Made by a program: the position numbers and the translations under genes
Assembly: GCF_054482595.1 (NCBI RefSeq)
Contig: NZ_CM137008.1
Length of the DNA: 64,000 nt
Reading direction: 5' to 3' (one strand)
Part shown: one piece after another, positions 34,670-51,237 of the stretch
Position numbering within the stretch: position 1 is the stretch's first letter
How the letters are laid out: the number at the start of each line of letters is the position of its first letter
The notes under the pieces: generated by a model
Seen by the model: only the letters and a program-made list of their open reading frames with translations
The model's database searches: none
Told to the model about the DNA's origin: nothing

Positions 34670-35428
34670 ATGGATGCACTACAAACACAAACTGTTATTA
34701 GTACAACCGCGCCGCAGCCCAACTACATTCCGGGGCTGATTGCGGTGGTCGGGTGTGATGGCACCGGTAAATCCACGCTGACCACCGACCTGGTGAAATC
34801 GCTGCAACAACACTGGCAAACCGAGCGCCGCTATTTGGGGCTGCTCTCCGGCGAAGACGGCGACAAAATCAAACGATTGCCGTTGGTTGGCGTCTGGCTG
34901 GAACGGCGACTGGCGGCCAAATCCTCGAAAACCCAAAGCATGAAAACCAAATCTCCGGCGCTATGGGCGGCGGTGATTATGTACTGCTTCTCGCTGCGAA
35001 GAATGGCGAATCTACGCAAGGTTCAGCGACTGGCGCAAAGTGGCGTTCTGGTGGTCAGCGATCGCTTCCCGCAGGCTGAAATTTCGGGCTTTTATTATGA
35101 CGGACCGGGGATCGGCGTCGAACGTGCGACCGGGAAAATAAGCATGTTTCTGGCGCAGCGCGAACGGCGTTTATACCAACAAATGGCGCAATATCGCCCG
35201 GAATTAATTATTCGCCTGGGCATTGATATTGAGACTGCCATCTCCCGCAAGCCTGACCATGACTATGCCGAGCTGCAGGACAAAATCAGTGTTATGTCGA
35301 CGATTGGCTATAACGGCACAAAAATTCTTGAGATTGATTCCAGAGCGCCCTACAGCGAAGTGCTGGAACAGGCACAGAAGGCGGTTTCTCTGGTTGCCAT
35401 CGTTTCTGACCGCCGAAGTTTAACTTAA
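34670..35428 (+). CDS. yghR: P-loop NTPase, thymidylate-kinase-like fold, function unknown
   Basis: 252 aa; Walker A GCDGTGKST, VSDRFP, SRKPDHD. Confidence 0.8.
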   Translation: MDALQTQTVISTTAPQPNYIPGLIAVVGCDGTGKSTLTTDLVKSLQQHWQTERRYLGLLSGEDGDKIKRLPLVGVWLERRLAAKSSKTQSMKTKSPALWAAVIMYCFSLRRMANLRKVQRLAQSGVLVVSDRFPQAEISGFYYDGPGIGVERATGKISMFLAQRERRLYQQMAQYRPELIIRLGIDIETAISRKPDHDYAELQDKISVMSTIGYNGTKILEIDSRAPYSEVLEQAQKAVSLVAIVSDRRSLT

Positions 35429-35473
35429 GGCTGGCGGGATACTTTTTACTATCAACGATAAGGTCAGGCTGAA

Positions 35474-36823
35474 TTGGCGGGTTTTAACATCAAACATTGG
35501 TTTGCAGATGGCGCGTTTCGCACCATTATTCGCAATAGCGCCTGGTTAGGCTCCAGTAATGTCGTGAGCGCTTTGCTGGGGCTGTTGGCGCTCTCGTGTG
35601 CCGGTAAAGGGATGACGCCCGCCATGTTTGGCGTACTGGTGATTGTGCAATCGTACGCCAAGTCGATCAGCGATTTTATTAAGTTTCAGACATGGCAGCT
35701 GGTGGTTCAGTACGGAACGCCAGCCTTGACCAACAATAATCTGCAGCAATTTCGCAATGTCGTCTCATTTTCCTTCTCGCTGGATATCGTCAGCGGCGCG
35801 GTGGCGATTGTCGGCGGCATTGCCTTACTGCCATTCCTTTCCCATTCATTAGGTCTGGATGACCAAAGCTTTTGGCTGGCGGCGCTGTATTGCACGCTCA
35901 TTCCTTCAATGGCTTCCTCCACGCCGACCGGCATTCTGCGTGCGGTAGATCGCTTTGATTTGATTGCTGTACAGCAGGCGACGAAACCTTTTCTGCGCGC
36001 AGCGGGGAGCGTCGCAGCCTGGTATTTTGACTTTGGTTTTGAGGGTTTTGTTATTGCCTGGTACGTGTCGAATCTGGTTGGCGGCACCATGTACTGGTGG
36101 TTTGCCGCGCGCGAATTACGCCGCAGAAATATCCATAACGCCTTCAAATTGAATCTGTTTGAGTCTGCCCGACACATTAAAGGCGCGTGGAGTTTTGTCT
36201 GGTCAACCAACATTGCCCACTCCATCTGGTCGGCGCGTAACTCGTGCAGCACAGTGTTGGTGGGGATCGTGTTAGGACCCGCTGCCGCCGGGTTATTTAA
36301 AATCGCCATGACATTCTTCGACGCCGCCGGAACGCCAGCGGGTTTGCTGGGTAAAAGTTTTTACCCAGAGGTGATGCGTTTAGATCCGCGCACCACCAGA
36401 CCGTGGTTGTTAGGCGTGAAGTCCGGTTTACTGGCGGTCGGAATCGGTATTCTGGTGGCGCTCGCGGTGTTGATCGTCGGCAAGCCGCTCATTTCGCTGG
36501 TGTTTGGCGTTAAGTATCTCGAAGCGTATGACCTGATTCAGGTGATGCTGGGCGCAATTGTGATCTCGATGCTGGGCTTCCCTCAGGAGTCATTGCTATT
36601 GATGGCGGGAAAACAGCGCGCTTTTCTCGTGGCGCAAACCATCGCCTCAATCGGCTACATCGTATTGCTGTTCATGTTCTGTCATCTGTTTGGCGTGCTG
36701 GGAGCAGCGTTTGCTTACTTCGGTGGGCAATGTCTGGACGTGGCGCTCTCGTTAATTCCAACCTTAAAGGCATTTTTTCAGCGCCATTCCTTGCTTTATA
36801 ACGCAGCCGGAGAGAAATCCTGA
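35474..36823 (+). CDS. yghQ: MOP/Wzx-like polysaccharide or lipid flippase family inner membrane protein; start codon uncertain (ORF track begins at a TTG, first in-frame ATG is 46 codons in)
   Basis: 449 aa polytopic membrane protein; 45 bp after yghR; stop overlaps the start of the next ORF (TGATG). Confidence 0.75.
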   Translation: MAGFNIKHWFADGAFRTIIRNSAWLGSSNVVSALLGLLALSCAGKGMTPAMFGVLVIVQSYAKSISDFIKFQTWQLVVQYGTPALTNNNLQQFRNVVSFSFSLDIVSGAVAIVGGIALLPFLSHSLGLDDQSFWLAALYCTLIPSMASSTPTGILRAVDRFDLIAVQQATKPFLRAAGSVAAWYFDFGFEGFVIAWYVSNLVGGTMYWWFAARELRRRNIHNAFKLNLFESARHIKGAWSFVWSTNIAHSIWSARNSCSTVLVGIVLGPAAAGLFKIAMTFFDAAGTPAGLLGKSFYPEVMRLDPRTTRPWLLGVKSGLLAVGIGILVALAVLIVGKPLISLVFGVKYLEAYDLIQVMLGAIVISMLGFPQESLLLMAGKQRAFLVAQTIASIGYIVLLFMFCHLFGVLGAAFAYFGGQCLDVALSLIPTLKAFFQRHSLLYNAAGEKS

Positions 36824-37647
36824 TGATGAGAAAATATTTCCCGCTTGAGGCGAGCGAGCATCTATTTGTTGCGATTGAGGAAGATGATGTTGTTGATGCC
36901 CAGGTCAGTTTGCCGCCGACTATCGCACTAAGTTGTACCACCGAAATCATCCATGATAATTACGCGTTATGCCTGCAATTCTGGCTCAATGGCGTTGATC
37001 GTCAGGAATTACTTCGTTTAATTCGCAAACAAGCCAAAGGCGATGAGCTGACGACAGACGAGCGTAAACAGTTTAAATACATGCGAGCGCGCTACAAGCA
37101 CCTGCGTTTTGCGCAACGGCTGTATTTAAAGAAGCATCAGGCCGGATTTTTATTCGGCAAAACGACCGTTTTTCTGGGACGTTTTCAGGACGGATTTCGT
37201 AACGGTAAGAAAAATATTGTGTCGTATTACGGCAACCTGTTACGAATTTATTTAAGCTCTCCGGTCTGGTCGTTGGTGAACTATTCATTACGCCATAGCC
37301 AGTTAGAAAGCGTAAGCGGTTTTATTGCCTATCGGCAAAAGCAAATGCATGCCCTGAAAGAGATAATTGCCAAACCGCGACTAACCGGCAGGGAATTTCA
37401 TGATGTGCGAAAAATCATCAGCCAGCAGGTTTCTTATTACGACACCTTAAGATCGCTTGATCCTGAAAATAAAGAGGCGTTACAGATTTCCCGTTTCCTC
37501 GCCGCCATTAATGGCCTGATGGGGGATAAACACGACGACATGGTGGCGGATGATATGGAAAACCGCCAGTCGTATGATGCACCGGTGGCGCTGGATAGCG
37601 ATATTCGCCAGCGCTTAGAGCTGCTGATTTCGCGTTTTCCGCTATAA
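36823..37647 (+). CDS. Hypothetical soluble protein, function unknown
   Basis: 274 aa ORF, no predicted TM segment or signal peptide, start overlaps the yghQ stop; no family recognised from sequence alone. Confidence 0.6.
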   Translation: MMRKYFPLEASEHLFVAIEEDDVVDAQVSLPPTIALSCTTEIIHDNYALCLQFWLNGVDRQELLRLIRKQAKGDELTTDERKQFKYMRARYKHLRFAQRLYLKKHQAGFLFGKTTVFLGRFQDGFRNGKKNIVSYYGNLLRIYLSSPVWSLVNYSLRHSQLESVSGFIAYRQKQMHALKEIIAKPRLTGREFHDVRKIISQQVSYYDTLRSLDPENKEALQISRFLAAINGLMGDKHDDMVADDMENRQSYDAPVALDSDIRQRLELLISRFPL

Positions 37648-37655
37648 CCGGAGCA

Positions 37656-38219
37656 ATGATGTCATCTCGTTTGATTATTGCGCTGATTATCATGCTCTTA
37701 GCCCCGGGTGTGCAGGCACACAATTTCGTCACTGGCAAAACGGTTACCCCTGTTTATATTCAGGAAGGCGGCGAGCTGCTTCTGAATAGCGACGACGAAA
37801 TTCACTACCAAAAGTGGAACAGCACACAATTGGCGGGAAAAGTCCGAATTATCCAGTATATCGCCGGGCGTAAGTCGGCGAAGAAAAAGAACTCACTGTT
37901 AATTAAAGCGGTTGAAGCGGCAAACTTTCCGCAGGATCGTTTTCAGCCCACCACCATTGTGAACACTGATGATGCCATCTTTGGTACTGGCTATTTTGTC
38001 GTTGGCAAAATCGAAAAAAATAAACGGCGCTATCCGTGGGCGCAATTCGTTATTGACGGCAATGGACAGGGACGCGTTGCCTGGCGCTTGCCGGAGCAGA
38101 GTTCAACCATTCTGGTGCTGAATAAAGCTGGGCAAATTCAGTGGGCAAAGGACGGCAGCCTGACGCCGGAAGAGGTAGATCAGGTCATTGCGCTGGCGCA
38201 GAAACTGATCAATGAATAA
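37656..38219 (+). CDS. Secreted/periplasmic protein (possibly YtfJ-family-like)
   Basis: 187 aa; cleavable signal peptide MMSSRLIIALIIMLLAPGVQA; Shine-Dalgarno ccggag upstream; family assignment by recollection only. Confidence 0.6.
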   Translation: MMSSRLIIALIIMLLAPGVQAHNFVTGKTVTPVYIQEGGELLLNSDDEIHYQKWNSTQLAGKVRIIQYIAGRKSAKKKNSLLIKAVEAANFPQDRFQPTTIVNTDDAIFGTGYFVVGKIEKNKRRYPWAQFVIDGNGQGRVAWRLPEQSSTILVLNKAGQIQWAKDGSLTPEEVDQVIALAQKLINE

Positions 38220-38249
38220 AAAACTCAAAGGATTGAGGGCGTTAGTGAG

Positions 38250-39320
38250 ATGAAGCTGGTTGAACACTACATCATGCGTGGTACGCGCCGTCTGGTGCTG
38301 ATTATCGTCGGTTTTCTGATCTTTATTTTCGCCAGCTACTCCGCACAGCGTTATCTGACCGAAGCGGCAAATGGGACATTAGCACTTGATGTTGTGCTGG
38401 ATATCGTTTTCTACAAAGTGCTGATTGCACTGGAGATGTTGTTACCTGTTGGACTGTATGTGTCAGTTGGCGTGACGCTAGGGCAGATGTATACCGACTC
38501 GGAAATTACCGCTATCTCTGCGGCGGGGGGCAGTCCGGGACGCTTGTACAAAGCCGTTCTTTATCTGGCGATACCGCTAAGTATTTTTGTCACCCTTCTG
38601 TCGATGTATGGTCGTCCGTGGGCTTATGCGCAGATTTATCAACTGGAGCAGCAGTCGCAGTCGGAGCTGGATGTTCGCCAGTTGCGGGCAAAGAAATTTA
38701 ACACTAACGATAACGGACGAATGATCCTTTCGCAGACGGTTGATCAGGATAATAATCGCCTGACTGACGCGCTGATTTATACTTCTACTGCCAATCGAAC
38801 CCGCATTTTCCGCGCCCGTTCGGTTGATGTGGTTGACCCATCACCCGAGAAACCGACCGTTATGTTGCACAACGGCACTGCCTATCTTCTCGATCATCAG
38901 GGTCGTGACGACAACGAACAGATCTACCGTAATCTGCAATTACATCTGAATCCGCTGGATCAAAGCCCTAACGTCAAACGCAAAGCAAAATCGGTCACGG
39001 AGCTGGCGCGCTCCGCCTTTCCTGCCGATCATGCCGAACTGCAATGGCGACAAAGCCGTGGCCTGACCGCATTGTTGATGGCGCTGCTGGCCATTTCATT
39101 AAGTCGGGTAAAACCGCGGCAGGGGCGATTTTCAACGTTATTGCCACTGACGTTGCTGTTTATTGCCATTTTTTATGGCGGCGACGTCTGCCGTACGCTG
39201 GTGGCTAACGGCGCGATTCCTCTCATTCCTGGTTTGTGGTTAGTGCCCGGACTCATGCTAATGGGCCTGCTGATGCTGGTTGCACGCGACTTCACTTTGC
39301 TGCAGAAATTTTCCCGATGA
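38250..39320 (+). CDS. LptF-like permease (YjgP/YjgQ family)
   Basis: 356 aa; N-terminal TM bundle, large periplasmic domain, C-terminal TMs; conserved RxGRxS-type segment (RVKPRQGRFSTLLP) typical of LptF/LptG. Confidence 0.7.
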   Translation: MKLVEHYIMRGTRRLVLIIVGFLIFIFASYSAQRYLTEAANGTLALDVVLDIVFYKVLIALEMLLPVGLYVSVGVTLGQMYTDSEITAISAAGGSPGRLYKAVLYLAIPLSIFVTLLSMYGRPWAYAQIYQLEQQSQSELDVRQLRAKKFNTNDNGRMILSQTVDQDNNRLTDALIYTSTANRTRIFRARSVDVVDPSPEKPTVMLHNGTAYLLDHQGRDDNEQIYRNLQLHLNPLDQSPNVKRKAKSVTELARSAFPADHAELQWRQSRGLTALLMALLAISLSRVKPRQGRFSTLLPLTLLFIAIFYGGDVCRTLVANGAIPLIPGLWLVPGLMLMGLLMLVARDFTLLQKFSR

Positions 39321-40396
39321 ATGTTTTCAGTCGCTATTTAATCCGTCATCTCTTTCTCGGTTTTGCCGCCGCCGCAGGGTTATTGCTGCCGCTTTTTACT
39401 ACCTTCAACCTGATTAACGAACTGGATGATGTCAGCCCGGGCGGTTATCGCTGGACTCAGGCGGTGCTGGTGGTGCTGATGACCTTACCGCGTACACTGG
39501 TCGAACTTTCGCCGTTTATCGCCTTATTGGGAGGGATTGTTGGCCTGGGGCAGTTATCGAAAAACAGTGAGCTTACCGCCATTCGCAGCACGGGGTTTTC
39601 TATCTTCCGTATTGCACTGGTGGCGCTGGTTGCCGGGATATTGTGGACTGTTTCGTTAGGCGCGATAGATGAGTGGGTGGCGTCGCCATTGCAGCAACAG
39701 GCGCTGCAAATCAAATCGACCGCCACCGCGTTAGGGGAGGACGATGACATTACCGGCAATATGCTGTGGGCCAGGCGCGGCAATGAATTTGTGACGGTGA
39801 AATCGCTGAATGAACAGGGCCAGCCGGTGGGCGTGGAGATTTTTCATTATCGTGACGATCTCTCGCTCGAATCCTACATTTATGCACGCAGTGCCACCAT
39901 TGAAGACGACAAAACGTGGATCCTGCATGGTGTGAATCATAAAAAATGGCTGAATGGCAAAGAAACGCTGGAAACATTAGATAATCTTGCCTGGCAATCG
40001 GCCTTCACCAGTATGGATCTTGAAGAGTTATCAATGCCGGGCAATACTTTTTCTGTCCGTCAGCTTAATCATTACATCCATTATTTGCAGGAAACCGGGC
40101 AACCCAGCAGCGAATACCGCCTTGCACTGTGGGAAAAACTGGGGCAACCCATCCTGACCCTGGCGATGATTTTGCTGGCTGTGCCGTTTACCTTTAGCGC
40201 CCCGCGCTCGCCAGGGATGGGTAGCCGTCTCGCTGTAGGCGTCATCGTTGGCTTACTCACCTGGATCAGCTATCAAATCATGGTCAATCTGGGTTTGCTA
40301 TTTGCGTTGAGCGCACCTGTTTTCGCGCTCGGTTTACCGGTAGCGTTTGTGTTGATGGCGTTGAGCCTGGTGTATTGGTATGACAGACAATATTAA
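39317..40396 (+). CDS. LptG-like permease (YjgP/YjgQ family); ORF track start at 39236 is over-extended, with the likely start at the ATG overlapping the upstream stop (ATGA)
   Basis: Translation from MNVFSRYLIRHLFLGF; same architecture as LptG, including a NHYIHYLQETGQ segment comparable to the LptG region around YVKYLKSSGQ. Confidence 0.7.
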   Translation: MNVFSRYLIRHLFLGFAAAAGLLLPLFTTFNLINELDDVSPGGYRWTQAVLVVLMTLPRTLVELSPFIALLGGIVGLGQLSKNSELTAIRSTGFSIFRIALVALVAGILWTVSLGAIDEWVASPLQQQALQIKSTATALGEDDDITGNMLWARRGNEFVTVKSLNEQGQPVGVEIFHYRDDLSLESYIYARSATIEDDKTWILHGVNHKKWLNGKETLETLDNLAWQSAFTSMDLEELSMPGNTFSVRQLNHYIHYLQETGQPSSEYRLALWEKLGQPILTLAMILLAVPFTFSAPRSPGMGSRLAVGVIVGLLTWISYQIMVNLGLLFALSAPVFALGLPVAFVLMALSLVYWYDRQY

Positions 40397-40430
40397 ACCC
40401 GCCGTGGCGCAACACCACAGCGGGCTCACA

Positions 40431-41603
40431 TTACTGCTTCAGAGTAGCAAATGCTTGAATGATGGCATCGATTTGCTCACGACTGTGGGCAGCGTTTACG
40501 CTACAGCGCAGCAGCGTGATGCCTGCAGGCGCGGCAGGTGGCAGGATAAGATTCACATAAACGCCCAGCGAAATAAGCTCGCGCCAGATGCGTAAACCGT
40601 CCTCTTTCGAACCGATTATTACCGGCACTACCGGGCTAATATGTGAACTTAACTCATAACCCAGTTTTTGCAGACCGTCATACAGATGGTTGGCATTATC
40701 CATCAGCTTTTGCCGCAGCTCTGGTTGTGTGGCAATAGTTCTTAACGACGAGCGCACGGTCGCAATGCAGGACGGAGAAGGAGAGGCGGTAAAAATATAC
40801 GGGCGGCTGCCGTAGCGCAGCACTTCCATCGCTTCCGAACCGACAGCAAAACCGCCAATCGAGGCCAGACTTTTACTGAAGGTGCCAACGATAATATCCA
40901 CATCATCTTCAACGCCAACGGCTTCAGCCAGTCCGCGCCCCGTTGCGCCTAACACGCCAAACGAATGCGCTTCATCGACAATCAAATAACCACCGAGACG
41001 ACGTTTGATATCAACAATTTCCGCCAGCGGCGCAACGTCACCGAGCATGCTGTAGATACCCTCAACGATGATAATCGCCTCTTTCGCCCGTTCACCGAGG
41101 CGAACCATGCGCCGTTCCAGATCTTTAGCATCGTTATGGCGGAAACGAATAATTTCCGCGCCACCGAGAGAACAGGCGTCATAAATACTGGCGTGGCTGT
41201 CGGCATCCAGTAACACCACGGCGTTATGGTCGGCAAGTGCGCTGATGACGCCTAAATTAGCGGTATAACCGGTTGAAAAAACGATAGCGGTAGGGCGATT
41301 GAAAAACTCGGCAATCTCTTTCTCTAACGCCAGGTGCGGCGCATAACTGCCGTTTGCCATACGAGAACCGGTGGTGCCGGTGCCTTGGGCCGCTAACGCT
41401 GCCTGACCTTCGGCGATGGCATCATGATTAAAGGTTAAACCGAGGTAATTATTGGTCCCGGCCAGAATCACTTTTTTATTGCCGATCCGGCCTTCGGTGG
41501 CGGAATACACTTCATCAATACAGGTGCCAAACGGTGTTAACCCGTTGTCACTAAATTGCAGTCGCTCGCCAGCAAGGCGCGCATATTTATCGTATAGCCC
41601 CAT
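40431..41603 (-). CDS. Alpha-oxoamine synthase (PLP-dependent), serine-palmitoyltransferase-like
   Basis: 390 aa; PLP-lysine motif GTFSKS, RPYIFTAS, GVYVN, PPAAPAG, LLRCS motifs resembling bacterial SPT more than BioF. Confidence 0.8.
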   Translation of the reverse strand: MGLYDKYARLAGERLQFSDNGLTPFGTCIDEVYSATEGRIGNKKVILAGTNNYLGLTFNHDAIAEGQAALAAQGTGTTGSRMANGSYAPHLALEKEIAEFFNRPTAIVFSTGYTANLGVISALADHNAVVLLDADSHASIYDACSLGGAEIIRFRHNDAKDLERRMVRLGERAKEAIIIVEGIYSMLGDVAPLAEIVDIKRRLGGYLIVDEAHSFGVLGATGRGLAEAVGVEDDVDIIVGTFSKSLASIGGFAVGSEAMEVLRYGSRPYIFTASPSPSCIATVRSSLRTIATQPELRQKLMDNANHLYDGLQKLGYELSSHISPVVPVIIGSKEDGLRIWRELISLGVYVNLILPPAAPAGITLLRCSVNAAHSREQIDAIIQAFATLKQ

Positions 41604-41851
41604 TATTTATTCTCCAGCCATGGAAGTAGAGTTTCCATTAATTGCGCAGGGGTTTTGACATCCAGCAGAATATTAATAGGAATGGAAATATCGAATCTGT
41701 CTTCCAGCATCATTAAGAGATCCATCACTTTGATCGACTCCAGGCCAAGATCGTTGACGAGATCGCTGTCGGGCTTAATTTCCACACCGTTTTCGACCAA
41801 ATCCTGTAAACAGGAAAGGATGTAATCCATTACTATTTCACGATTTACCAT
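41603..41851 (-). CDS. Dedicated acyl carrier protein
   Basis: 82 aa acidic protein with phosphopantetheine-attachment-like motif DLGLESIKVMDL; 1-nt overlap with the downstream synthase. Confidence 0.75.
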   Translation of the reverse strand: MVNREIVMDYILSCLQDLVENGVEIKPDSDLVNDLGLESIKVMDLLMMLEDRFDISIPINILLDVKTPAQLMETLLPWLENK

Positions 41852-41882
41852 AGAAACGTTAACACACCTTTAAACAAGACAA

Positions 41883-42797
41883 TCAAAATAGCCCGTTGCG
41901 TAATGCGTGTTCCAGGCTAATCCCGGGAAACCAATTAATATCTTCAGAAATACGGTTATTACTTGCCGACCAGTCAACATGGGTTAATTCACCCAATTTC
42001 GAGCGGGTCAGCATGGGTTCTTTACCTGCCAGGCGACTCAATGCGGTACTGATATCCGCAAGGCAGGTGAGTACCGGCAGAGGAATACCAACCATTCGCA
42101 CGGAACCACAACGGGCGTCGGCGGCAAGCTGTCGTACGCGCTGCCAGTCATAGCCGCCGGGGACGCCATCGCATAATTCATAGGTTTGCGTCTGTACAGT
42201 TTCGGCGCTTAACCACTGACCCACTGCTTGCGCAAAATCGGTGACGTGCAGGAAAGAGAGTTGTGTATCTGGCGCACCAAGTCGTGGCAGCAGGCCGCGC
42301 AGCATCCAGTCAAACAGCGGTTTTAACTCTTTATCGCCGGGACCATACACGGCTGTCGGGCGAAAAACGCCCAGCGTAATTTTGTCAGCCATTGCAGTCA
42401 GCCGTTGTTCGGCGACGTATTTGGAATTTGCGTACCAGGAGAGTTCGGGATGGCGCGCCGCCAGCGAAGAGATAAACAGAAAACGTTGGCAAAAGCCGCT
42501 CTCTTTTGCTGCTTGCATCAGGCGCAGGCTGCCGTCAACGTTACAGTGGGTAAAAATCTCTTCTTTGTGTCCGCGCACTTGCCCGGCGCAATGGACCACC
42601 GCGCTGGCTCCGGCAACCAGTTCGCTAAGCGAATGTGTATCTTCCAGCGAACCGCGCACCCAAGTAAGATTATCATTGACGTGAGCGCGGGCAGTACGCG
42701 TCAATGCGCGAACGTGAAAGCCGCGGGCGAGCAGGTTATCGATAATATATTTACCGATAAACCCGGTAGCGCCCGTCACCGCGACAGTTTGATTCAT
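41883..42797 (-). CDS. NAD(P)-dependent epimerase/dehydratase-family reductase
   Basis: 304 aa; Rossmann motif VTGATGFIG at the N-terminus. Confidence 0.75.
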   Translation of the reverse strand: MNQTVAVTGATGFIGKYIIDNLLARGFHVRALTRTARAHVNDNLTWVRGSLEDTHSLSELVAGASAVVHCAGQVRGHKEEIFTHCNVDGSLRLMQAAKESGFCQRFLFISSLAARHPELSWYANSKYVAEQRLTAMADKITLGVFRPTAVYGPGDKELKPLFDWMLRGLLPRLGAPDTQLSFLHVTDFAQAVGQWLSAETVQTQTYELCDGVPGGYDWQRVRQLAADARCGSVRMVGIPLPVLTCLADISTALSRLAGKEPMLTRSKLGELTHVDWSASNNRISEDINWFPGISLEHALRNGLF

Positions 42798-44515
42798 GCC
42801 AGGGATTCCTGCACATGAAGACTGGCAGCATAAGCCTTCTGATAACGTTTTTTCGCTTCCGCACGGGCAGGCTTGCCGGAGGACGTTCGGGGAATACTGT
42901 GGGGCGGCAACAGATCGATAGCCGCGGTCACGCCAAATTCGCTTTGGATCCGTGCCGCCAGCGCGTGGATAAGCTGCCCGCGACGTTCTTCATCGCTGAT
43001 CCGACACTGGATCTGCAAAATGATTTTTTCCTGGGCGGTAACAAAAGCAATCGCATCGCCAGAATGAATTTCCGGTTCCTGTTCCGCAATATATTCAATA
43101 TCCTGCGGCCAGATATTACGGCCACGAATAATAATCAGATCTTTAATGCGTCCGGTGACATACAGATAACCGTCCAGCAGATAACCGAGGTCGCCAGTGT
43201 CTAACCAGCCCGTCGCGGCAATCTCGTCTTGCGAAGCCTGGTCGCCAAAGTAACCGCTCATCAGACTGGGACCGGAGATGCAAATATGGCCTACCACACG
43301 TTCCGCGACCGGCATACCTGCTTCATTGCGGATTTCAATACCATGTTCCGGCAACGCTTTGCCGCAGTTGACGAAAGTCGATACGGCGCGTGTCTCTGCA
43401 CCCGGCGCGACGGCTTTACCCTGATATTCGAGGATGTCGCGATCCACTTCGTTAACCACAACCCCGGAGGCTTCATCAGAGAAGCTGACAGCCAGCGCAT
43501 TTTCTGCCAGTCCGTAGCACGGCATGAAAGTTTTATTGTCAAAGTTAACCTGACGGAAACATTCAGCGAATTGATGGAGTTGTTCTGCGGAGATGGGTTC
43601 TGCACCAATACCAGCGACGCGCCAGCAGGAAAGATCCAGTTCAGCGAGATCTTTTTCATTCACGCGGCGCTGGCACAATTCATAGCCAAACGGCGGCGCA
43701 ACGGAAACGGTGCCGCGATTTTTACTGATCAATTTAAGCCATTGCAGAGGACGCATGGCAAAATCCTGAGTGCGCAAATAATCTACTGAAAGCTGCGTGG
43801 CGACCGGGGTCAGGAGAAAGCCGACCAGTCCCATATCATGGTAGAAAGGCAGCCAGGAGACGCAGCGGTCGCCAGGGCGTAATTTAATGCCGTCGTGGCT
43901 TATAGCACGTAGATTAGCCATCACTTCGCGATGGGTGATAATGACGCCACGGGGAAAACGGGTGCTGCCGGAGGTGTACTGGAGGTAGGCGATATCGTTC
44001 GGAACTGGACGCTGGAGCGCAACATCGGCTTCCGGTAATGCCTTATACCAGGCGTGGCTTAATACATGCAATTCGGGGTTGTTATGCGTGGCGGCATTGA
44101 CCAGCGGCAACCACTCATCACCAGTGATAATGGCAGCGGGCTGGCAACTTGCCAGTAAACCCTGCAGTTTGGCGCTCCAGGAATCCCGCTGACCGACGCC
44201 CATTGGAATCGCCAACGGGACGGCGACTAAGCCGGCATACTGGCAGGAAAAAAAAGCCTCTACGAACCCGCTACTGGTTTCGGCAATCAGTGCCACGCGA
44301 TCGCCTTTTTTCAGGTTCAGCGATAACAACCGCTTCGCACCAGCTTCGGCACGCGCTTTTAACGTCTGATATTCCAGTTGATCTTCAAGTTGGCAACGTC
44401 TGTCATAAAAATTCATTCCAGCGCTACTCAGAGCGGCGTAGTCCAAAGCATCAACCAGCGTTGGAAAATCGGCATAGCGCATAGGTAGGGAATGCGTAAA
44501 GATTTTATTAGACAT
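42794..44515 (-). CDS. Fatty-acyl-AMP ligase / acyl-CoA (acyl-ACP) synthetase family; start uncertain (44515 ATG preferred over 44542 TTG and 44482 ATG)
   Basis: About 573 aa ANL-superfamily adenylating enzyme; AMP-binding motif YTSGSTRFPRGV; 4-nt overlap with the downstream reductase. Confidence 0.75.
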   Translation of the reverse strand: MSNKIFTHSLPMRYADFPTLVDALDYAALSSAGMNFYDRRCQLEDQLEYQTLKARAEAGAKRLLSLNLKKGDRVALIAETSSGFVEAFFSCQYAGLVAVPLAIPMGVGQRDSWSAKLQGLLASCQPAAIITGDEWLPLVNAATHNNPELHVLSHAWYKALPEADVALQRPVPNDIAYLQYTSGSTRFPRGVIITHREVMANLRAISHDGIKLRPGDRCVSWLPFYHDMGLVGFLLTPVATQLSVDYLRTQDFAMRPLQWLKLISKNRGTVSVAPPFGYELCQRRVNEKDLAELDLSCWRVAGIGAEPISAEQLHQFAECFRQVNFDNKTFMPCYGLAENALAVSFSDEASGVVVNEVDRDILEYQGKAVAPGAETRAVSTFVNCGKALPEHGIEIRNEAGMPVAERVVGHICISGPSLMSGYFGDQASQDEIAATGWLDTGDLGYLLDGYLYVTGRIKDLIIIRGRNIWPQDIEYIAEQEPEIHSGDAIAFVTAQEKIILQIQCRISDEERRGQLIHALAARIQSEFGVTAAIDLLPPHSIPRTSSGKPARAEAKKRYQKAYAASLHVQESLA

Positions 44516-44878
44516 ATACACCACGAAAAAATTGGATATCAAAAATAAAATGACAATAATGCGGTGGATTATATAGGTATAAAAGATAAATGAGATAGTA
44601 TTTTCATTGGTGTGATATTGAACATTGATTAAAATAATGCTTTAAATCTTAACTCTGTTTATTGTGAATAATATTTAATTTATGAATATATTAAGATAAT
44701 GCCCTGGTGGGTCGCATTAAATCCACAATAGTCATGTTGATCGGCTAACGGTGGCGCTGGTGTATCGTAATTATTCATAAATATTATTTTATTTTTCCTT
44801 ATATTCATTGCGTGGATAGTTAAGGTACCGTCCGTTGCTGTTTATTTTCAGCATTAATTATTTGTTATCCACTAAGCT

Positions 44879-46021
44879 ATGGAACGCGATCTGCTGATGA
44901 TTAAAATTGAAAAAGTAATAAATAAAAACGACTTAAAGGCATTTATCGCTTTTCCGTCATTACTTTATCCCGACGATCCAAACTGGATACCCCCTTTATT
45001 CATTGAACGCAACGAGCATTTGTCTGCGAAAAATCCGGGGACGGACCATATCATCTGGCAGGCGTGGGTGGCAAAAAAAGCGGGGCAGATAGTTGGGCGT
45101 ATTACCGCGCAAATAGATACCTTGCACCGCGAGCGTTACGGCAAAGATACCGGTCATTTCGGCATGATTGACGCCATTGATGATCCGCAGGTTTTTGCCG
45201 CGTTGTTTGGCGCAGCGGAAGCGTGGTTGAAGTCACAAGGTGCAAGTAAGATCAGCGGTCCTTTCAGCCTGAATATCAATCAGGAAAGCGGATTACTGAT
45301 TGAAGGTTTCGATACACCACCCTGTGCGATGATGCCGCACGGTAAACCGTGGTATGCCGCGCATATTGAACAATTGGGTTATCACAAAGGCATTGATTTA
45401 CTGGCGTGGTGGATGCAGCGAACCGATCTCACTTTCTCTCCGGCGCTAAAAAAACTGATGGATCAGGTGCGCAAAAAGGTGACCATTCGCTGCATCAATC
45501 GCCAGCGGTTTGCCGAAGAGATGCAGATCCTGCGTGAGATTTTCAACTCTGGCTGGCAGCACAACTGGGGATTTGTGCCGTTTACCGAACATGAATTCGC
45601 GACCATGGGCGACCAACTTAAATATCTGGTGCCGGACGATATGATCTACATCGCTGAGATTGATTCTGCACCCTGCGCGTTTATTGTCGGCTTGCCGAAC
45701 ATCAACGAGGCGATTGCCGATCTGAACGGATCGCTCTTTCCCTTCGGCTGGGCAAAATTGCTGTGGCGTTTGAAAGTCAGCGGTGTGCGAACTGCGCGAG
45801 TACCGCTGATGGGCGTGCGCGACGAGTATCAGTTCAGCCGCATCGGCCCGGTGATTGCGCTGTTATTGATTGAAGCCTTACGCGATCCGTTTGCCCGCCG
45901 GAAGATCGATGCGCTGGAGATGTCATGGATCCTCGAAACCAATACAGGCATGAATAACATGCTGGAACGCATTGGGGCGGAGCCGTACAAGCGTTACCGA
46001 TTGTATGAAAAGCAGATTTAA
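44879..46021 (+). CDS. yghO: GNAT-like acyltransferase-family protein (intact here; an IS5-disrupted pseudogene in K-12, from memory)
   Basis: 380 aa uninterrupted ORF divergent from the synthase operon across a 336-bp AT-rich region; GNAT assignment is tentative. Confidence 0.65.
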   Translation: MERDLLMIKIEKVINKNDLKAFIAFPSLLYPDDPNWIPPLFIERNEHLSAKNPGTDHIIWQAWVAKKAGQIVGRITAQIDTLHRERYGKDTGHFGMIDAIDDPQVFAALFGAAEAWLKSQGASKISGPFSLNINQESGLLIEGFDTPPCAMMPHGKPWYAAHIEQLGYHKGIDLLAWWMQRTDLTFSPALKKLMDQVRKKVTIRCINRQRFAEEMQILREIFNSGWQHNWGFVPFTEHEFATMGDQLKYLVPDDMIYIAEIDSAPCAFIVGLPNINEAIADLNGSLFPFGWAKLLWRLKVSGVRTARVPLMGVRDEYQFSRIGPVIALLLIEALRDPFARRKIDALEMSWILETNTGMNNMLERIGAEPYKRYRLYEKQI

Positions 46022-46027
46022 TACCAG

Positions 46028-46792
46028 CTAACTCAGGTTCATCTCCAGCGGCACCGCCGAGCGAATCAAATGGTGGCCTTCCAGCTCGATATCGTGGAGA
46101 TTCTTTTTCACGGTCCGCACATGATCGCGTGCTGCGCGCTGGGCGACGTGCGGCAGCCGCTGCAACACCGCGTTGTAGATCCGCGCATGCTGGCGATCGA
46201 TCTGCTTTTTTTGCTGTGGTCGATGGTAGAGATTATTTACGCTGGCAAACACTGAATTAAACATCAGGTCGGTCAATGATTGCAGCGTAAACACCAGCAC
46301 CTGATTGTGAGAAGCCTGACAAATGGCGAGATGGAAAGCGTGATCCAACTGCGCATGTTCGATCAGCGAAATCTCTTTGTTGTTCTCACTGGCGGCGAGC
46401 ATTTTTTCATAACAGCGGGTTATCACAACAAAATCAGCCTGCGTTCCCAGCGTTGCCGCAAGCCTTGCCGATTCGCCCTCCAGTAATGCGCGAACGTCGA
46501 GCAGATCGTACAGCGTTCGCGGCTGCGTACTGAACAGATGGATCAGCGGGCTGGTGTCCTGCACCCGATTAAGCCGTGCGACACGAGAATCGCGACCCTG
46601 CGCCGTTTCAATAATCCCGCGCCCGCGCAGCACGGTCAGCCCTTCACGCAGTGCGGAGCGTGAGAAGCCGAGCTTTTCACACAGTCGACGTTCCGAGGGA
46701 AGCGGCTGACCGACCTTCAGTACGCCGTCGATAATTAACCGTTCGATACTCTCTGCAACCACTTCGCAAATAGGGCGACGTTCATCTTTCAT
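46028..46792 (-). CDS. glcC: GntR-family transcriptional activator of the glc operon; ORF track start at 46852 is over-extended
   Basis: Translation from MKDERRPICEVVAESIERLIIDG; GntR HTH plus FCD domain; divergent from glcD. Confidence 0.92.
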   Translation of the reverse strand: MKDERRPICEVVAESIERLIIDGVLKVGQPLPSERRLCEKLGFSRSALREGLTVLRGRGIIETAQGRDSRVARLNRVQDTSPLIHLFSTQPRTLYDLLDVRALLEGESARLAATLGTQADFVVITRCYEKMLAASENNKEISLIEHAQLDHAFHLAICQASHNQVLVFTLQSLTDLMFNSVFASVNNLYHRPQQKKQIDRQHARIYNAVLQRLPHVAQRAARDHVRTVKKNLHDIELEGHHLIRSAVPLEMNLS

Positions 46793-47042
46793 TCCCGGAC
46801 CTCGTGCACAGGTAGGACCAATTTTTCTGTACTTAACTCGCAAAACACGCACATCACGTAAGTGATTATGTTACATCAATTTAACATTGAGTTAACCAAG
46901 ACAAGGTCACAGAGCTGGAAAAAAAATGGTCTGACCGGTAGCTAAAGAGATAGACGAAAACGAAAAGCCCGCTTAATAACTGTTCACAGAAGCAGCGCGC
47001 AAAAATCAGCTGCCACACAACACAACAAAGCGAAGCCTACTC
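46793..47042. promoter_or_regulatory. Divergent glcC / glcDEFGBA control region
   Basis: 250-bp intergenic between divergently oriented glcC and glcD. Confidence 0.6.
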
Positions 47043-48542
47043 ATGAGCATCTTGTACGAAGAGCGTCTTGATGGCGCTTTACCCGATGTCGACCGCACAT
47101 CGGTACTGATGGCACTGCGTGAGCATGTCCCTGGACTTGAGATCCTGCATACCGATGAGGAGATCATTCCTTACGAGTGTGACGGGTTGAGCGCGTATCG
47201 CACGCGTCCATTACTGGTTGTTCTGCCTAAGCAGATGGAACAGGTGACATCGATTCTGGCTGTCTGCCACCGCCTGCGTGTACCGGTGGTGACCCGTGGT
47301 GCAGGCACCGGGCTTTCTGGTGGCGCGCTGCCGCTGGAAAAAGGTGTGTTGTTGGTGATGGCGCGCTTTAAAGAGATCCTCGACATTAACCCCGTTGGTC
47401 GCCGCGCGCGCGTGCAGCCAGGCGTGCGTAACCTGGCGATCTCCCAGGCCGTTGCACCGCATAATCTCTACTACGCACCGGACCCTTCCTCACAAATCGC
47501 CTGTTCCATTGGCGGCAACGTGGCAGAAAATGCCGGCGGCGTCCACTGCCTGAAATATGGTCTGACCGTACATAACCTGCTGAAAATTGAAGTGCAAACG
47601 CTGGATGGCGAGGCACTGACGCTGGGATCGGATGCGCTGGATTCGCCTGGTTTTGACCTGCTGGCGCTGTTCACCGGATCGGAAGGTATGCTCGGCGTGA
47701 CCACCGAAGTAACGGTGAAGCTGTTGCCGAAGCCGCCCGTGGCGCGGGTTCTGTTAGCCAGCTTTGACTCGGTAGAAAAAGCCGGACTTGCAGTTGGTGA
47801 CATCATCGCCAATGGCATTATCCCCGGCGGGCTGGAGATGATGGATAACCTGTCGATCCGCGCGGCGGAAGATTTTATTCATGCCGGTTATCCCGTCGAC
47901 GCCGAAGCGATTTTGTTATGCGAGCTGGACGGCGTGGAGTCTGACGTACAGGAAGACTGCGAGCGGGTCAACGACATCTTGTTGAAAGCGGGCGCGACTG
48001 ACGTCCGTCTGGCACAGGACGAAGCAGAGCGCGTACGTTTCTGGGCCGGTCGCAAAAATGCGTTCCCGGCGGTAGGACGTATCTCCCCGGATTACTACTG
48101 CATGGATGGCACCATCCCGCGTCGCGCCCTGCCTGGCGTACTGGAAGGCATTGCCCGTTTATCGCAGCAATATGATTTACGTGTTGCCAACGTCTTTCAT
48201 GCCGGAGATGGCAACATGCACCCGTTAATCCTTTTCGATGCCAACGAACCCGGTGAATTTGCCCGCGCGGAAGAGCTGGGCGGGAAGATCCTCGAACTCT
48301 GCGTTGAAGTTGGCGGCAGCATCAGTGGGGAACATGGCATCGGGCGAGAAAAAATCAATCAAATGTGCGCCCAGTTCAACAGCGATGAAATCACGACCTT
48401 CCATGCGGTCAAGGCGGCGTTTGACCCCGATGGTTTGCTGAACCCTGGGAAAAACATTCCCACGCTACACCGCTGTGCTGAATTTGGTGCCATGCATGTG
48501 CATCACGGTCATTTACCTTTCCCTGAACTGGAGCGTTTCTGA
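47043..48542 (+). CDS. glcD: Glycolate oxidase FAD-binding subunit
   Basis: 499 aa FAD-linked oxidase. Confidence 0.95.
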   Translation: MSILYEERLDGALPDVDRTSVLMALREHVPGLEILHTDEEIIPYECDGLSAYRTRPLLVVLPKQMEQVTSILAVCHRLRVPVVTRGAGTGLSGGALPLEKGVLLVMARFKEILDINPVGRRARVQPGVRNLAISQAVAPHNLYYAPDPSSQIACSIGGNVAENAGGVHCLKYGLTVHNLLKIEVQTLDGEALTLGSDALDSPGFDLLALFTGSEGMLGVTTEVTVKLLPKPPVARVLLASFDSVEKAGLAVGDIIANGIIPGGLEMMDNLSIRAAEDFIHAGYPVDAEAILLCELDGVESDVQEDCERVNDILLKAGATDVRLAQDEAERVRFWAGRKNAFPAVGRISPDYYCMDGTIPRRALPGVLEGIARLSQQYDLRVANVFHAGDGNMHPLILFDANEPGEFARAEELGGKILELCVEVGGSISGEHGIGREKINQMCAQFNSDEITTFHAVKAAFDPDGLLNPGKNIPTLHRCAEFGAMHVHHGHLPFPELERF

Positions 48543-49594
48543 TGCTACGCGAGTGTGATTACAGCCAGGCGCTGCTGGAGCAGGTGAATCAGGCAATTAG
48601 CGATAAAACGCCGCTGGTGATTCAGGGCAGCAATAGCAAAGCCTTTTTAGGTCGCCCTGTCACCGGGCAAACGCTGGATGTGCGTTGTCATCGCGGCATT
48701 GTTAATTACGACCCGACCGAGCTGGTGATAACCGCTCGTGCCGGAACGCCGCTGGTGGCGATTGAAGCGGCGCTGGAGAGCGCCGGGCAAATGCTTCCCT
48801 GCGAGCCGCCGCATTATGGTGAAGAAGCCACCTGGGGCGGGATGGTCGCCTGCGGGCTGGCGGGGCCGCGTCGCCCGTGGAGCGGTTCGGTCCGCGATTT
48901 TGTCCTCGGCACGCGCATCATTACCGGCGCTGGAAAACATCTGCGTTTTGGTGGCGAAGTGATGAAAAACGTTGCCGGATACGATCTCTCACGGTTAATG
49001 GCCGGAAGCTACGGTTGTCTTGGCGTGCTCACTGAAATCTCAATGAAAGTGTTACCGCGACCGCGCGCCTCCCTGAGCCTGCGTCGGGAAATCAACCTGC
49101 AAGAAGCCATGAGTGAAATCGCCGAGTGGCAACTCCAGCCATTACCCATTAGTGGCTTATGTTACTTCGACAATGCGTTGTGGATCCGCCTTGAGGGCGG
49201 CGAAGGATCGGTAAAAGCAGCGCGTGAACTGCTGGGTGGCGAAGAGGTTGCGGGTCAGTTCTGGCAGCAATTGCGTGAACAACAACTGCCGTTCTTCTCG
49301 TTACCAGGTACCTTATGGCGCATTTCATTACCCAGCGATGCGCCGATGATGGATTTACCCGGCGAGCAACTGATCGACTGGGGCGGGGCGTTACGCTGGC
49401 TGAAATCGACAGCCGAGGACAATCAAATCCATCGCATCGCCCGCAACGCTGGCGGTCATGCGACCCGCTTTAGTGCCGGAGATGGTGGCTTTGCCCCGCT
49501 ATCGGCTCCTTTATTCCGCTATCACCAGCAGCTTAAACAGCAGCTCGACCCTTGCGGCGTGTTTAACCCCGGTCGCATGTACGCGGAACTTTGA
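48542..49594 (+). CDS. glcE: Glycolate oxidase FAD-binding subunit GlcE
   Basis: 350 aa; ATGA overlap with glcD. Confidence 0.93.
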   Translation: MLRECDYSQALLEQVNQAISDKTPLVIQGSNSKAFLGRPVTGQTLDVRCHRGIVNYDPTELVITARAGTPLVAIEAALESAGQMLPCEPPHYGEEATWGGMVACGLAGPRRPWSGSVRDFVLGTRIITGAGKHLRFGGEVMKNVAGYDLSRLMAGSYGCLGVLTEISMKVLPRPRASLSLRREINLQEAMSEIAEWQLQPLPISGLCYFDNALWIRLEGGEGSVKAARELLGGEEVAGQFWQQLREQQLPFFSLPGTLWRISLPSDAPMMDLPGEQLIDWGGALRWLKSTAEDNQIHRIARNAGGHATRFSAGDGGFAPLSAPLFRYHQQLKQQLDPCGVFNPGRMYAEL

Positions 49595-49604
49595 GGAGCA
49601 GGCT

Positions 49605-50828
49605 ATGCAAACCCAATTAACTGAAGAGATGCGGCAGAACGCGCGCGCGCTGGAAGCCGACAGCATCCTGCGCGCCTGTGTTCACTGCGGATTTTGTACC
49701 GCAACCTGCCCAACCTATCAGCTTCTGGGCGATGAACTGGACGGGCCGCGCGGGCGCATCTATCTGATTAAACAGGTGCTGGAAGGCAACGAAGTCACGC
49801 TTAAAACACAGGAGCATCTCGATCGCTGCCTCACTTGCCGCAATTGTGAAACCACCTGTCCTTCTGGTGTGCGCTATCACAATTTGCTGGATATCGGGCG
49901 TGATATTGTCGAGCAGAAAGTGAAACGCCCACTGCCGGAGCGAATACTGCGCGAAGGATTGCGCCAGGTAGTGCCGCGTCCGGCGGTCTTCCGTGCGCTG
50001 ACGCAGGTAGGGCTGGTGCTGCGACCGTTTTTACCGGAACAGGTCAGAGCAAAACTGCCTGCTGAAACGGTGAAAGCTAAACCGCGTCCGCCGCTGCGCC
50101 ATAAGCGTCGGGTTTTAATGCTGGAAGGCTGCGCCCAGCCTACGCTTTCGCCCAACACCAACGCGGCAACTGCGCGAGTGCTGGATCGTCTGGGGATCAG
50201 CGTCATGCCAGCTAACGAAGCAGGCTGTTGTGGCGCGGTGGACTATCATCTTAATGCGCAGGAGAAAGGGCTGGCGCGGGCGCGCAATAATATTGATGCC
50301 TGGTGGCCCGCGATTGAAGCAGGTGCCGAGGCAATTTTGCAAACCGCCAGCGGCTGCGGTGCGTTTGTCAAAGAGTACGGGCAGATGCTGAAAAGCGATG
50401 CGTTATATGCCGATAAAGCGCGTCAGGTCAGTGAACTGGCGGTCGATTTAGTCGAGCTTCTGCGCGAGGAACCGCTGGAAAAACTGGCAATTCGCGGCGA
50501 TAAAAAACTGGCCTTCCACTGCCCGTGTACCCTACAACATGCGCAAAAGCTGAACGGCGAAGTGGAAAAAGTGTTGCTTCGTCTTGGATTTACCTTAACG
50601 GACGTTCCCGACAGCCATCTGTGCTGCGGTTCAGCGGGAACATATGCGTTAACGCATCCCGATCTGGCACGCCAGCTGCGGGATAACAAAATGAATGCGC
50701 TGGAAAGCGGCAAACCGGAAATGATCGTCACCGCCAACATTGGTTGCCAGACGCATCTGGCGAGCGCCGGTCGTACCTCTGTGCGTCACTGGATTGAAAT
50801 TGTAGAACAAGCCCTTGAAAAGGAATAA
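49605..50828 (+). CDS. glcF: Glycolate oxidase iron-sulfur subunit; ORF track start at 49458 is over-extended
   Basis: Translation from MQTQLTEEMRQNARALE; CxxCxxCxxxCP 4Fe-4S motifs (CVHCGFCTATCP, CLTCRNCETTCP). Confidence 0.93.
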   Translation: MQTQLTEEMRQNARALEADSILRACVHCGFCTATCPTYQLLGDELDGPRGRIYLIKQVLEGNEVTLKTQEHLDRCLTCRNCETTCPSGVRYHNLLDIGRDIVEQKVKRPLPERILREGLRQVVPRPAVFRALTQVGLVLRPFLPEQVRAKLPAETVKAKPRPPLRHKRRVLMLEGCAQPTLSPNTNAATARVLDRLGISVMPANEAGCCGAVDYHLNAQEKGLARARNNIDAWWPAIEAGAEAILQTASGCGAFVKEYGQMLKSDALYADKARQVSELAVDLVELLREEPLEKLAIRGDKKLAFHCPCTLQHAQKLNGEVEKVLLRLGFTLTDVPDSHLCCGSAGTYALTHPDLARQLRDNKMNALESGKPEMIVTANIGCQTHLASAGRTSVRHWIEIVEQALEKE

Positions 50829-50832
50829 AAAA

Positions 50833-51237
50833 ATGAAAACTAAAGTCATTCTTAGCCAGCAAATGGCGAGTGCAATTATTGCCGCAGGTCAGGAAGAGGC
50901 GCAGAAAAATAACTGGTCTGTTTCCATTGCTGTTGCCGATGACGGCGGTCATCTGCTGGCGTTAAGTCGCATGGACGATTGCGCGCCGATTGCGGCTTAC
51001 ATCTCTCAGGAGAAAGCGCGTACCGCCGCGCTGGGGCGTCGTGAAACTAAGGGCTATGAAGAGATGGTGAACAACGGACGTACCGCGTTCGTGACTGCGC
51101 CGTTATTAACGTCGCTGGAAGGCGGCGTACCGGTTGTTGTTGATGGGCAAATTATTGGTGCCGTGGGCGTTTCTGGTTTAACCGGAGTACAGGATGCGCA
51201 GGTCGCGAAAGCGGCAGCAGCGGTGTTGGCGAAATAA
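50833..51237 (+). CDS. glcG: GlcG protein (DUF336/heme-binding-like); ORF track start at 50815 is over-extended
   Basis: Translation from MKTKVILSQQMASAIIAAGQ. Confidence 0.9.
   Translation: MKTKVILSQQMASAIIAAGQEEAQKNNWSVSIAVADDGGHLLALSRMDDCAPIAAYISQEKARTAALGRRETKGYEEMVNNGRTAFVTAPLLTSLEGGVPVVVDGQIIGAVGVSGLTGVQDAQVAKAAAAVLAK

Follow-up and report, generated by a model that had tools for sequence, protein, structure and literature searches.

In a 64,000-nucleotide stretch of Escherichia coli DNA (NCBI RefSeq assembly GCF_054482595.1, contig NZ_CM137008.1; the whole stretch is called the window here), the genes lying between yghQ and yghO very probably form the core of a chromosomal 13-gene module for a sphingolipid, a lipid of the ceramide type. 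The module runs from yghT to yghO and is carried between pitB and glcC in most E. coli, and its core was lost by K-12 through a deletion associated with the insertion sequence (IS) IS5. It is read as a sphingolipid locus because its serine palmitoyltransferase (Spt) passes the equivalog model for that enzyme, AasR is a fatty acyl-AMP ligase, the proteins are nearly identical to enzymes assayed from strain BL21, and the gene order resembles that of a Caulobacteraceae locus.

Two K-12 references, ET12567 (locus L002) and MG1655 (NC_000913.3), were compared with the window, and both have the order yghT, yghS, yghR, a 355-codon yghQ, one IS5 and yghO. By BLAST, window positions 30000-36542 correspond to L002 1-6544 and positions 44921-51998 to L002 7741-14818. 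Followed base by base, the K-12 match ends at 36541/36542 in yghQ and resumes at 44919 in yghO. A model's earlier reading of the letters without database searches (hereafter the sequence-only reading) had described an IS5-scarred yghQ–yghO junction in K-12 that lacks about 8 kb of intact genes. The alignment bears this out, as 8,377 bp (36542-44918) are missing, the genes are not intact in K-12, yghQ has 355 codons and yghO is without its native 5′ end. Eight whole genes are gone, encoding the CHAD-like protein, the YtfJ paralogue, LptF2, LptG2, Spt, the acyl carrier protein AcpR, the CerR-like reductase and AasR, together with the AT-rich aasR-yghO region, the last 94 codons of yghQ and 40 nt at the start of yghO. 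The span given earlier, 36823-44878, describes the intergenic gap correctly, but the deletion overshoots it by 281 nt leftward into yghQ and by 40 nt rightward into yghO. In the same way, the statement that K-12 has lost exactly the biosynthetic and export core is right for spt, acpR, the reductase gene, aasR, lptF2 and lptG2, but it goes too far: the deletion took only a part of the module, and a fifth gene of biosynthesis, the cut yghO′, as well as yghT, yghS, yghR and the cut yghQ′ stay behind in K-12 as orphaned remnants.

The remnant of yghO is altered at its start. In MG1655 it is a chimeric coding sequence of 390 codons (b2981), the first 70 nt of which lie inside IS5 (L065 5044-6216). 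In the MG1655 protein, 24 IS5-encoded residues replace the native N-terminus MERDLLMIKIEKVI, and the first β-strand is lost in the predicted structure. The statement that yghO is annotated as a pseudogene in K-12 was mistaken, as NC_000913.3 carries a pseudogene flag on neither yghO (b2981) nor yghQ (b2983).

IS5 is 1,195 bp long, ends in the terminal inverted repeats GGAAGGTGCGAATAAG / CTTGTTCGCACCTTCC and uses YTAR target sites. The element at the K-12 junction, annotated as IS5LO or insH9, agrees in all of these features, with a length of 1,195 bp, inverted-repeat ends from GGAAGGTGCGAATAAG to CTTGTTCGCACCTTCC and YTAR flanks. The identical 4-bp duplication and unbroken target of a simple IS5 insertion are not found around it: IS5 has TTAG on one side and TTAA on the other, with a loss of 8,390 bp of native sequence. 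Because the flanking 4-mers differ and both run on into native sequence, the event is an IS5-associated deletion and not a simple insertion. Copies of IS5 in K-12 are listed at wbbL, yhiS, yhcE and yghO (PMC11677980). As in the other K-12 losses caused by this element, a full 1,195-bp IS5 interrupts genes at YTAR sites; unlike in those cases, the flanks are not duplicated, 8.4 kb are gone and one target was made by an earlier nonsense mutation.

Both flanks can be traced in other strains. BL21(DE3) carries the whole locus and is 99.4-99.8% identical to K-12 in the region, closer than the window is. The right-flank TTAA is native in its yghO allele (ATT AAT, where the window has ATA AAT). On the left side, the native sequence is ATT CAG G, and the T of K-12 converts Gln356 CAG to TAG and TCAG to TTAG. 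Because BL21 and K-12 differ at just 2 of 1,233 positions to the left of the junction, it is unlikely that a point difference falls on the junction by chance. For the deletion as such chance is no issue, since the comparison is deterministic and the junctions recur in independent complete genomes, the left one (yghQ–IS5) in 342 and the right one (IS5–yghO) in 351, nine genomes having the right one alone. All of the approximately 70 junction-carrying records that were inspected are K-12 laboratory derivatives or K-12-like "isolates".

The CAG-to-TAG stop in yghQ survives in nine wild isolates and, judged from their sequences, is older than IS5 and made its target. A 67-nt query consisting of the yghQ T allele and native downstream DNA is matched perfectly in LD27-1, L9, YZ22MPE54, TUM12357, A134_1EC, Br_167_kylling, Br_178_kylling, EC-07 and EC06, which come from chicken, pork, fish, faeces and a human. 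In 3 of 3 of these isolates inspected, yghQ stops at the TAG of K-12 (window 36539; loci L005-L007, around 12034/10034), and the stop is followed by 45 nt of native sequence and then by a different deletion that joins gspL. Residues 1-355 of YghQ in the T-allele isolates are identical to those of K-12. Because the TAG allele occurs in wild isolates with native sequence beyond it, the truncation of YghQ in K-12 is not due to IS5, and the 355-residue protein is a pre-existing pseudogene allele. An exact-protein look-up with it, for which 24 of 6,671 blocks were read, gave only K-12-type and yghQ–gspL′ contexts, and no T-allele genome with an intact locus, in these blocks.

The loss in K-12 thus started with the change of CAG to TAG at codon 356 of yghQ, giving a TTAG site; the ends of IS5 then became joined to this site and to the TTAA at codons 14-15 of yghO, and the 8.4 kb between them were deleted. 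Either two IS5 copies in direct orientation could have recombined, or one IS5 could have undergone intramolecular transposition. Synthetic junction queries, with IS5 at the yghO TTAA or at the yghQ TTAG and the other side native, were covered to at least 80% by 0 of the 5,426 genomes surveyed. As both routes give the observed product and no intermediates were seen, they are inseparable.

A different history would make IS5 a bystander that inserted, in the simple way, into the junction of an unrelated earlier deletion. The flanks TTAG and TTAA differ in a single base, and one could imagine that TTAA was duplicated and that one copy then underwent a point mutation. Such a history is nevertheless very improbable: on either side, native sequence continues from a YTAR site that was there before, TTAA being native in yghO and TTAG being the nonsense allele, which nine wild isolates carry independently and with native DNA downstream, and a simple insertion produces identical duplications rather than two IS ends lying exactly on native targets 8.4 kb apart. 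A deletion made by IS5 itself is therefore the preferred account.

The deletion of the LD27-1 clade, which joins the stop allele of yghQ to gspL′, and that of isolate LZHX12, which joins yghT′ to gspL′, are different deletions with the same endpoint in gspL, GGG/TTTATGGCTTGCG. The gspL-endpoint deletions show 2-3 nt of microhomology each and no IS (L005 12060-12080; L003 6215-6235; L068 5890-5870, minus strand), and the shared endpoint is either a hot spot or a coincidence.

The distribution of the segment was surveyed in 5,426 complete RefSeq E. coli genomes, a set that is biased to laboratory strains and outbreak pathogens and in which Shigella is not included. The segment is carried, with at least 80% of its 8.4 kb covered, by 4,063 of them (75%), mostly at 95-99% identity; its reading frames were inspected in XH990, BL21 and AH02 only. 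Among the carriers are BL21(DE3), UTI89, an O25b:H4-ST131 strain, an O26 strain and Nissle 1917, and in these five and the other inspected matches the identity to the window is 95.1%-98.1%. K-12, on which the sequence-only reading had focused, indeed stands apart from this majority, but it is not the sole loser, as O157:H7 and several isolates have lost the segment independently.

Approximately 590 genomes have no match to yghT, yghQ or gspL, and those sampled are O157:H7. In this serotype (strain 3384, L008 13013-20363), pitB is cut at window position 32747 and the DNA onward is gone, including the whole 13-gene module; the loss extends over the glc genes at least as far as the query reached (window 52400). 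The junction leads from pitB′ through IS3 and IS66 fragments and an IS1203 copy to a truncated gene for a TcdA/TcdB-type glycosyltransferase. This deletion probably accounts for most of the approximately 590 genomes. The yghT′–gspL′ junction of LZHX12, which was considered as their cause, was rejected, being unique to that isolate. Other independent losses are an IS26 in the reductase gene of AH02 (L066 14799-15503), an IS1A in the ytfJ paralogue of HCP17S3_I4 (L067 15363-16060) and, in KTa005, an IS1 between gss and pheV with the whole pitB-to-pheV interval replaced (L075 11096-11793), in addition to the yghT′–gspL′ deletion of LZHX12 and that of the yghQ–gspL′ clade. Repeated IS-linked loss shows that the locus is dispensable in some niches, and its retention in 75% of the genomes, together with an identity of 75-82% for YghO across the Enterobacterales, suggests selection.

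These comparisons also indicate that K-12 lost the segment, rather than the other strains having gained it. About a quarter of the complete genomes are without the segment, and the aasR-yghO intergenic region is AT-rich, as might be expected if the K-12 state were ancestral and the 8.4 kb an island acquired by other strains. That polarity is, however, next to impossible, because yghQ and yghO are cut in K-12 exactly at the ends of IS5 but have their full length in all strains with the segment, which counts as refuting it. Moreover, the edges of the segment carry no integrase, att-like site or transposase, its GC content is genome-like (50.2% for the module, 51.8% for the window), and the segment-less genomes have junctions of several kinds, most of them linked to an IS. 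These 13 genes also lie by pitB in other Escherichia species and lineages and in Citrobacter, Pseudocitrobacter and Hafnia. The loss in K-12 is hence the reading retained here.

The coordinates of the features are collected in Table 1. The chromosome of E. coli XH990 is 100% identical to region 33000-49000 of the window, and the list of open reading frames of the window agrees with the annotation of this identical strain by the Prokaryotic Genome Annotation Pipeline (PGAP). Both sources confirm what had been read from the letters, that is, a yghQ frame of 449 residues and a yghO frame of 380 residues with intact genes between them, and neither has a transposase among the window genes between yghQ and yghO. 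The next gene after yghO is glcC. The two divergent intergenic regions (33752-33924 and 44483-44878) have a GC content of approximately 30%; the second presumably holds the promoters of both aasR and yghO, and a promoter and terminator scan of it gave a single weak consensus match only.

Table 1. Features of the yghT-yghO module and of the K-12 deletion in the window.
Feature	Position	Strand	Remarks
Segment absent from K-12, single IS5 in its place	36542-44918	.	8,377 bp here, 8,390 bp in BL21(DE3); BLAST and junction reading
Left breakpoint, yghQ	36538-36541	+	native TCAG (Gln356 CAG at 36539-36541); K-12 TTAG, TAG stop and YTAR target of IS5
Right breakpoint, yghO codons 14-15	44919-44922	+	TAAA in window, TTAA in BL21 and K-12; IS5 abuts TTAA
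pitB	31512-33011	+	PGAP annotation of XH990
yghT	33059-33751	-	P-loop protein, weak dTMP kinase similarity; kept in K-12; travels with spt across Enterobacterales
yghS	33925-34638	+	P-loop protein, weak dTMP kinase similarity; kept in K-12
yghR	34670-35428	+	P-loop protein, weak dTMP kinase similarity; kept in K-12
yghQ	35474-36823	+	449 residues, MOP-superfamily flippase-like membrane protein; codons 1-355 kept in K-12
CHAD-like hypothetical protein, 274 residues	36823-37647	+	gone from K-12; predicted fold
YtfJ-family paralogue	37659-38219	+	gone from K-12; TIGR01626, 213.5 bits (cut-off 151)
lptF2, LptF paralogue	38250-39320	+	gone from K-12; role proposed from Caulobacter LptF2
lptG2, LptG paralogue	39317-40396	+	gone from K-12
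spt, serine palmitoyltransferase	40431-41603	-	gone from K-12; NF047599 equivalog, 599.5 bits (cut-off 500)
acpR, specialised acyl carrier protein	41603-41851	-	gone from K-12; 100% identical to BL21 ECD_02853
epi, CerR-like NAD-dependent epimerase/dehydratase-family reductase	41883-42797	-	gone from K-12
aasR, fatty acyl-AMP ligase (acyl-AcpR synthetase)	42794-44482	-	gone from K-12; NF006624, 867.7 bits
aasR-yghO divergent intergenic region	44483-44878	.	396 bp, 29.5% GC; gone from K-12
yghO, tandem-GNAT N-acyltransferase (aca, bCerS-like)	44879-46021	+	380 residues; K-12 without first 40 nt and promoter

The assignment of the biosynthetic genes starts from Spt, which scores 599.5 bits, above the cut-off of 500, with NF047599, the equivalog model of NCBIfam for the serine palmitoyltransferase of proteobacteria. 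The gene of a dedicated acyl carrier protein, acpR (41603-41851), lies directly upstream of spt and overlaps its start, and a dedicated AasR, which belongs to the fatty acyl-AMP ligase family (867.7 bits, NF006624), is present as well. The putative CerR-like reductase is a member of the NAD-dependent epimerase/dehydratase family and is 34% identical in sequence to the syntenic gene flanked by aasR and acpR in a Caulobacteraceae locus. YghO is a tandem GNAT protein in its predicted structure, in agreement with a GNAT-type N-acyltransferase, and its homologues adjoin spt in distant phyla.

Part of the pathway has been assayed. In BL21(DE3), the genes ECD_02850-02854, named yghO/aca, aasR, epi, acpR and spt, make up the same locus, with an identical gene order and proteins that are 96-100% identical to those of the window (Spt 99.7%, AcpR 100%, AasR 98.4%) (Padilla-Gomez et al., 2022; PMC9386255). 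E. coli AcpR bears 4′-phosphopantetheine and is acylated by E. coli AasR, Spt prefers acyl-AcpR, and Spt, AcpR and AasR together give a compound whose migration resembles that of 3-oxosphinganine; yghO was assigned as the N-acyltransferase, and epi is listed among the sphingolipid genes in the legend of Fig. 9 (PMC9386255).

In the proposed pathway, AasR would charge AcpR, the carrier reserved for this pathway, with a fatty acid, and Spt would condense the acyl-AcpR with serine to 3-oxosphinganine. N-acylation by YghO and reduction by the short-chain dehydrogenase/reductase-type enzyme, in either order, would then lead to dihydroceramide. LptF2 and LptG2, probably with the housekeeping LptB as power source, would extract the lipid from the inner membrane toward the outer membrane, and YghQ, YghR, YghS, YghT, the CHAD-like protein and the YtfJ paralogue would probably take care of head-group chemistry and flipping.

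LptF2 and LptG2 score above the NCBIfam cut-offs for LptF and LptG (319 against 230 and 306 against 240, respectively), but share no more than 29% and 28% identity with the housekeeping E. coli LptF and LptG of the LptB2FG complex, which extracts lipopolysaccharide (LPS). Because they pass these equivalog cut-offs, PGAP names them "LPS export ABC transporter permease LptF/LptG", which is over-specific and sets a trap in the annotation of thousands of E. coli genomes. Unlike LptB2FG, LptF2 and LptG2 are encoded in a lipid-synthesis locus and are dispensable, as K-12 lives without both. The locus contains the paralogues of LptF and LptG and no lptB paralogue, and family scans found no ABC ATPase among the 13 genes. 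In Caulobacter, LptF2 and LptG2 have been linked to the export of sphingolipids; they form a complex that binds the single LptB, and they cannot be deleted while the anionic sphingolipid is made (Uchendu et al., 2026; bioRxiv 10.64898/2026.04.12.717747). Figure 2B of the same work draws the locus of E. coli UTI89 as a sphingolipid locus.

The locus of Caulobacter crescentus (ccna_01212-01226) encodes bCerS, LptG2, LptF2, CpgA-C, Spt, AcpR, CerR and AasR. A Caulobacteraceae locus and that of E. coli have an identical aasR-epi-acpR-spt order, and the former also encodes a full-length YghO homologue (a GNAT-type ceramide synthase) with 41% identity. In both Caulobacter and E. coli, LptF/LptG paralogues are present and an lptB paralogue is absent. 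In contrast to Caulobacter, E. coli has no CpgB homologue and no LptC2, and instead has YghR, YghS, YghT, the MOP flippase-like YghQ, the CHAD-like protein and the YtfJ paralogue. Because the accessory genes are different, the E. coli head group is probably different, too. YghR, YghS and YghT were considered as homologues of the ceramide kinase CpgB and rejected, since CpgB is like diacylglycerol kinase, with a GGDG motif, whereas they are P-loop proteins with a weak likeness to dTMP kinase. The 274-residue protein (36823-37647) has no Pfam or NCBIfam match, the Pfam CHAD signature included; it is confidently predicted to fold as a helical bundle like that of CHAD, a polyphosphate-binding domain, with the conserved basic motifs YKYIRARYKHLRFAQRLY and FHDVRKIISQQVS. 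Its position beside three P-loop proteins might, as a speculation, point to phosphate-rich head-group chemistry.

Several observations weigh against reading the segment as the core of a sphingolipid module that IS5 removed from K-12. A native E. coli sphingolipid is not reported in the literature searched, and empty-vector extracts of BL21(DE3) showed neither 3-oxosphinganine formation nor serine palmitoyltransferase activity (PMC9386255). YghO is without a sequence match in Pfam, NCBIfam or the PDB, and its assignment draws on fold, synteny and literature; YghR, YghS and YghT are not homologous to CpgB, the head-group enzyme of Caulobacter. Furthermore, no intermediate with IS5 at one site and intact neighbouring DNA was found, and we infer how, and in what order, IS5 acted, as well as the end product in E. 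coli and the route of its export. Because BL21(DE3) has an intact locus and yet its empty-vector extracts are negative, the locus may be silent or conditional, and the result suggests silence under laboratory conditions.

Part of this would also fit a pathway around an Spt-like α-oxoamine synthase that makes a non-membrane product, such as a secreted or signalling amino-lipid, or a silent relic without function: no native product is reported, BL21 empty-vector extracts have no such activity, the accessory genes (those for YghR, YghS, YghT, the CHAD-like protein and the YtfJ paralogue) are unlike those that serve the head group in Caulobacter, and the locus has been lost repeatedly in the wild. 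Either version is unlikely in view of the 3-oxosphinganine-like compound formed by E. coli Spt, AcpR and AasR (PMC9386255), the presence of all five dihydroceramide genes in intact form, and the dedicated LptF2 and LptG2 paralogues, which point to an outer-membrane destination. The retention of the segment in 4,063 of 5,426 genomes and the conservation of YghO across the Enterobacterales, which suggests purifying selection, also speak against it. The sphingolipid reading is thus favoured. A more tentative extension of it, which is possible but doubtful, is that most wild E. coli can make an outer-membrane ceramide-type lipid under non-laboratory conditions, with a head group added by YghR, YghS, YghT, the CHAD-like protein, the YtfJ paralogue and YghQ and with export by LptF2, LptG2 and LptB. 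Such a lipid would have been missed as K-12 and O157:H7 lack the locus and it would be silent in rich medium.

In some 25 genomes of the Enterobacterales, the complete set of 13 genes, yghT to yghO, is found no more than 10 kb away from spt. The genera are Citrobacter, Pseudocitrobacter, Hafnia, Sodalis, Serratia, Mangrovibacter, Pluralibacter, Pantoea and Rosenbergiella, and the module occurs in at least three gene orders and in various chromosomal contexts. Loci in Pseudomonas have the five synthesis genes, lptF2 and lptG2, and two YghRST-like genes. As in the window, pitB lies directly beside yghT in Citrobacter, Pseudocitrobacter and Hafnia (L013, L014, L015, L018, L019 and L027, at approximately 18.5-18.9 kb). 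It may be that this paralogue of a phosphate transporter moves together with the module; no pitB lies within 10 kb in Serratia, Mangrovibacter and Rosenbergiella. On a separate contig, Serratia sp. M24T3 carries an additional spt-acpR pair (80% and 69% identity), with no other module genes nearby (L028, compared with L017). In Alkalicoccobacillus porphyridii, a 273-bp low-coverage contig (L064) encodes the last 35 residues of Spt, 100% identical to E. coli, which is almost certainly E. coli contamination of this Bacillota assembly.

The sphingolipid genes themselves are already known from BL21(DE3) and Caulobacter. The earlier suggestion that their loss from K-12 explains why the system is uncharacterised does not hold, since Spt, AcpR and AasR of BL21(DE3) have been assayed (PMC9386255) and the UTI89 locus has been drawn (bioRxiv 10.64898/2026.04.12.717747). 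The BL21(DE3) study covers five genes; the K-12 deletion ("K-12" has 0 occurrences in it), the other eight module genes and the population distribution are treated here. The literature search found no description of the K-12 deletion of these genes. What is new is modest and consists of the breakpoints, the non-duplicated IS5 flanks, the older, target-creating nonsense mutation, the 13-gene extent of the module, the predicted CHAD-like fold and the O157:H7 loss. The evolutionary details, that is, the nonsense mutation that made the target and the repeated IS-linked loss, are small additions and not a new kind of system.

For the biology of E. coli, the deletion makes K-12 a natural knockout of a lipid pathway that is present in approximately 75% of sequenced E. 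coli. Work in K-12 on the leftover genes deals with orphaned fragments. The Keio and ASKA versions of yghQ have been used in a study of chlorhexidine resistance (PMC8170033), where the K-12 gene is a truncated remnant, and the ASKA clone of yghO (W3110 open reading frame JW5848) is in the construct list of a study of lysine acetyltransferases (PMC6199490). BL21(DE3) is a ready host for testing the locus and K-12 a clean recipient for its reconstitution, while envelope biology, lipidomics and antibiotic-permeability work based on K-12 are blind to the pathway.

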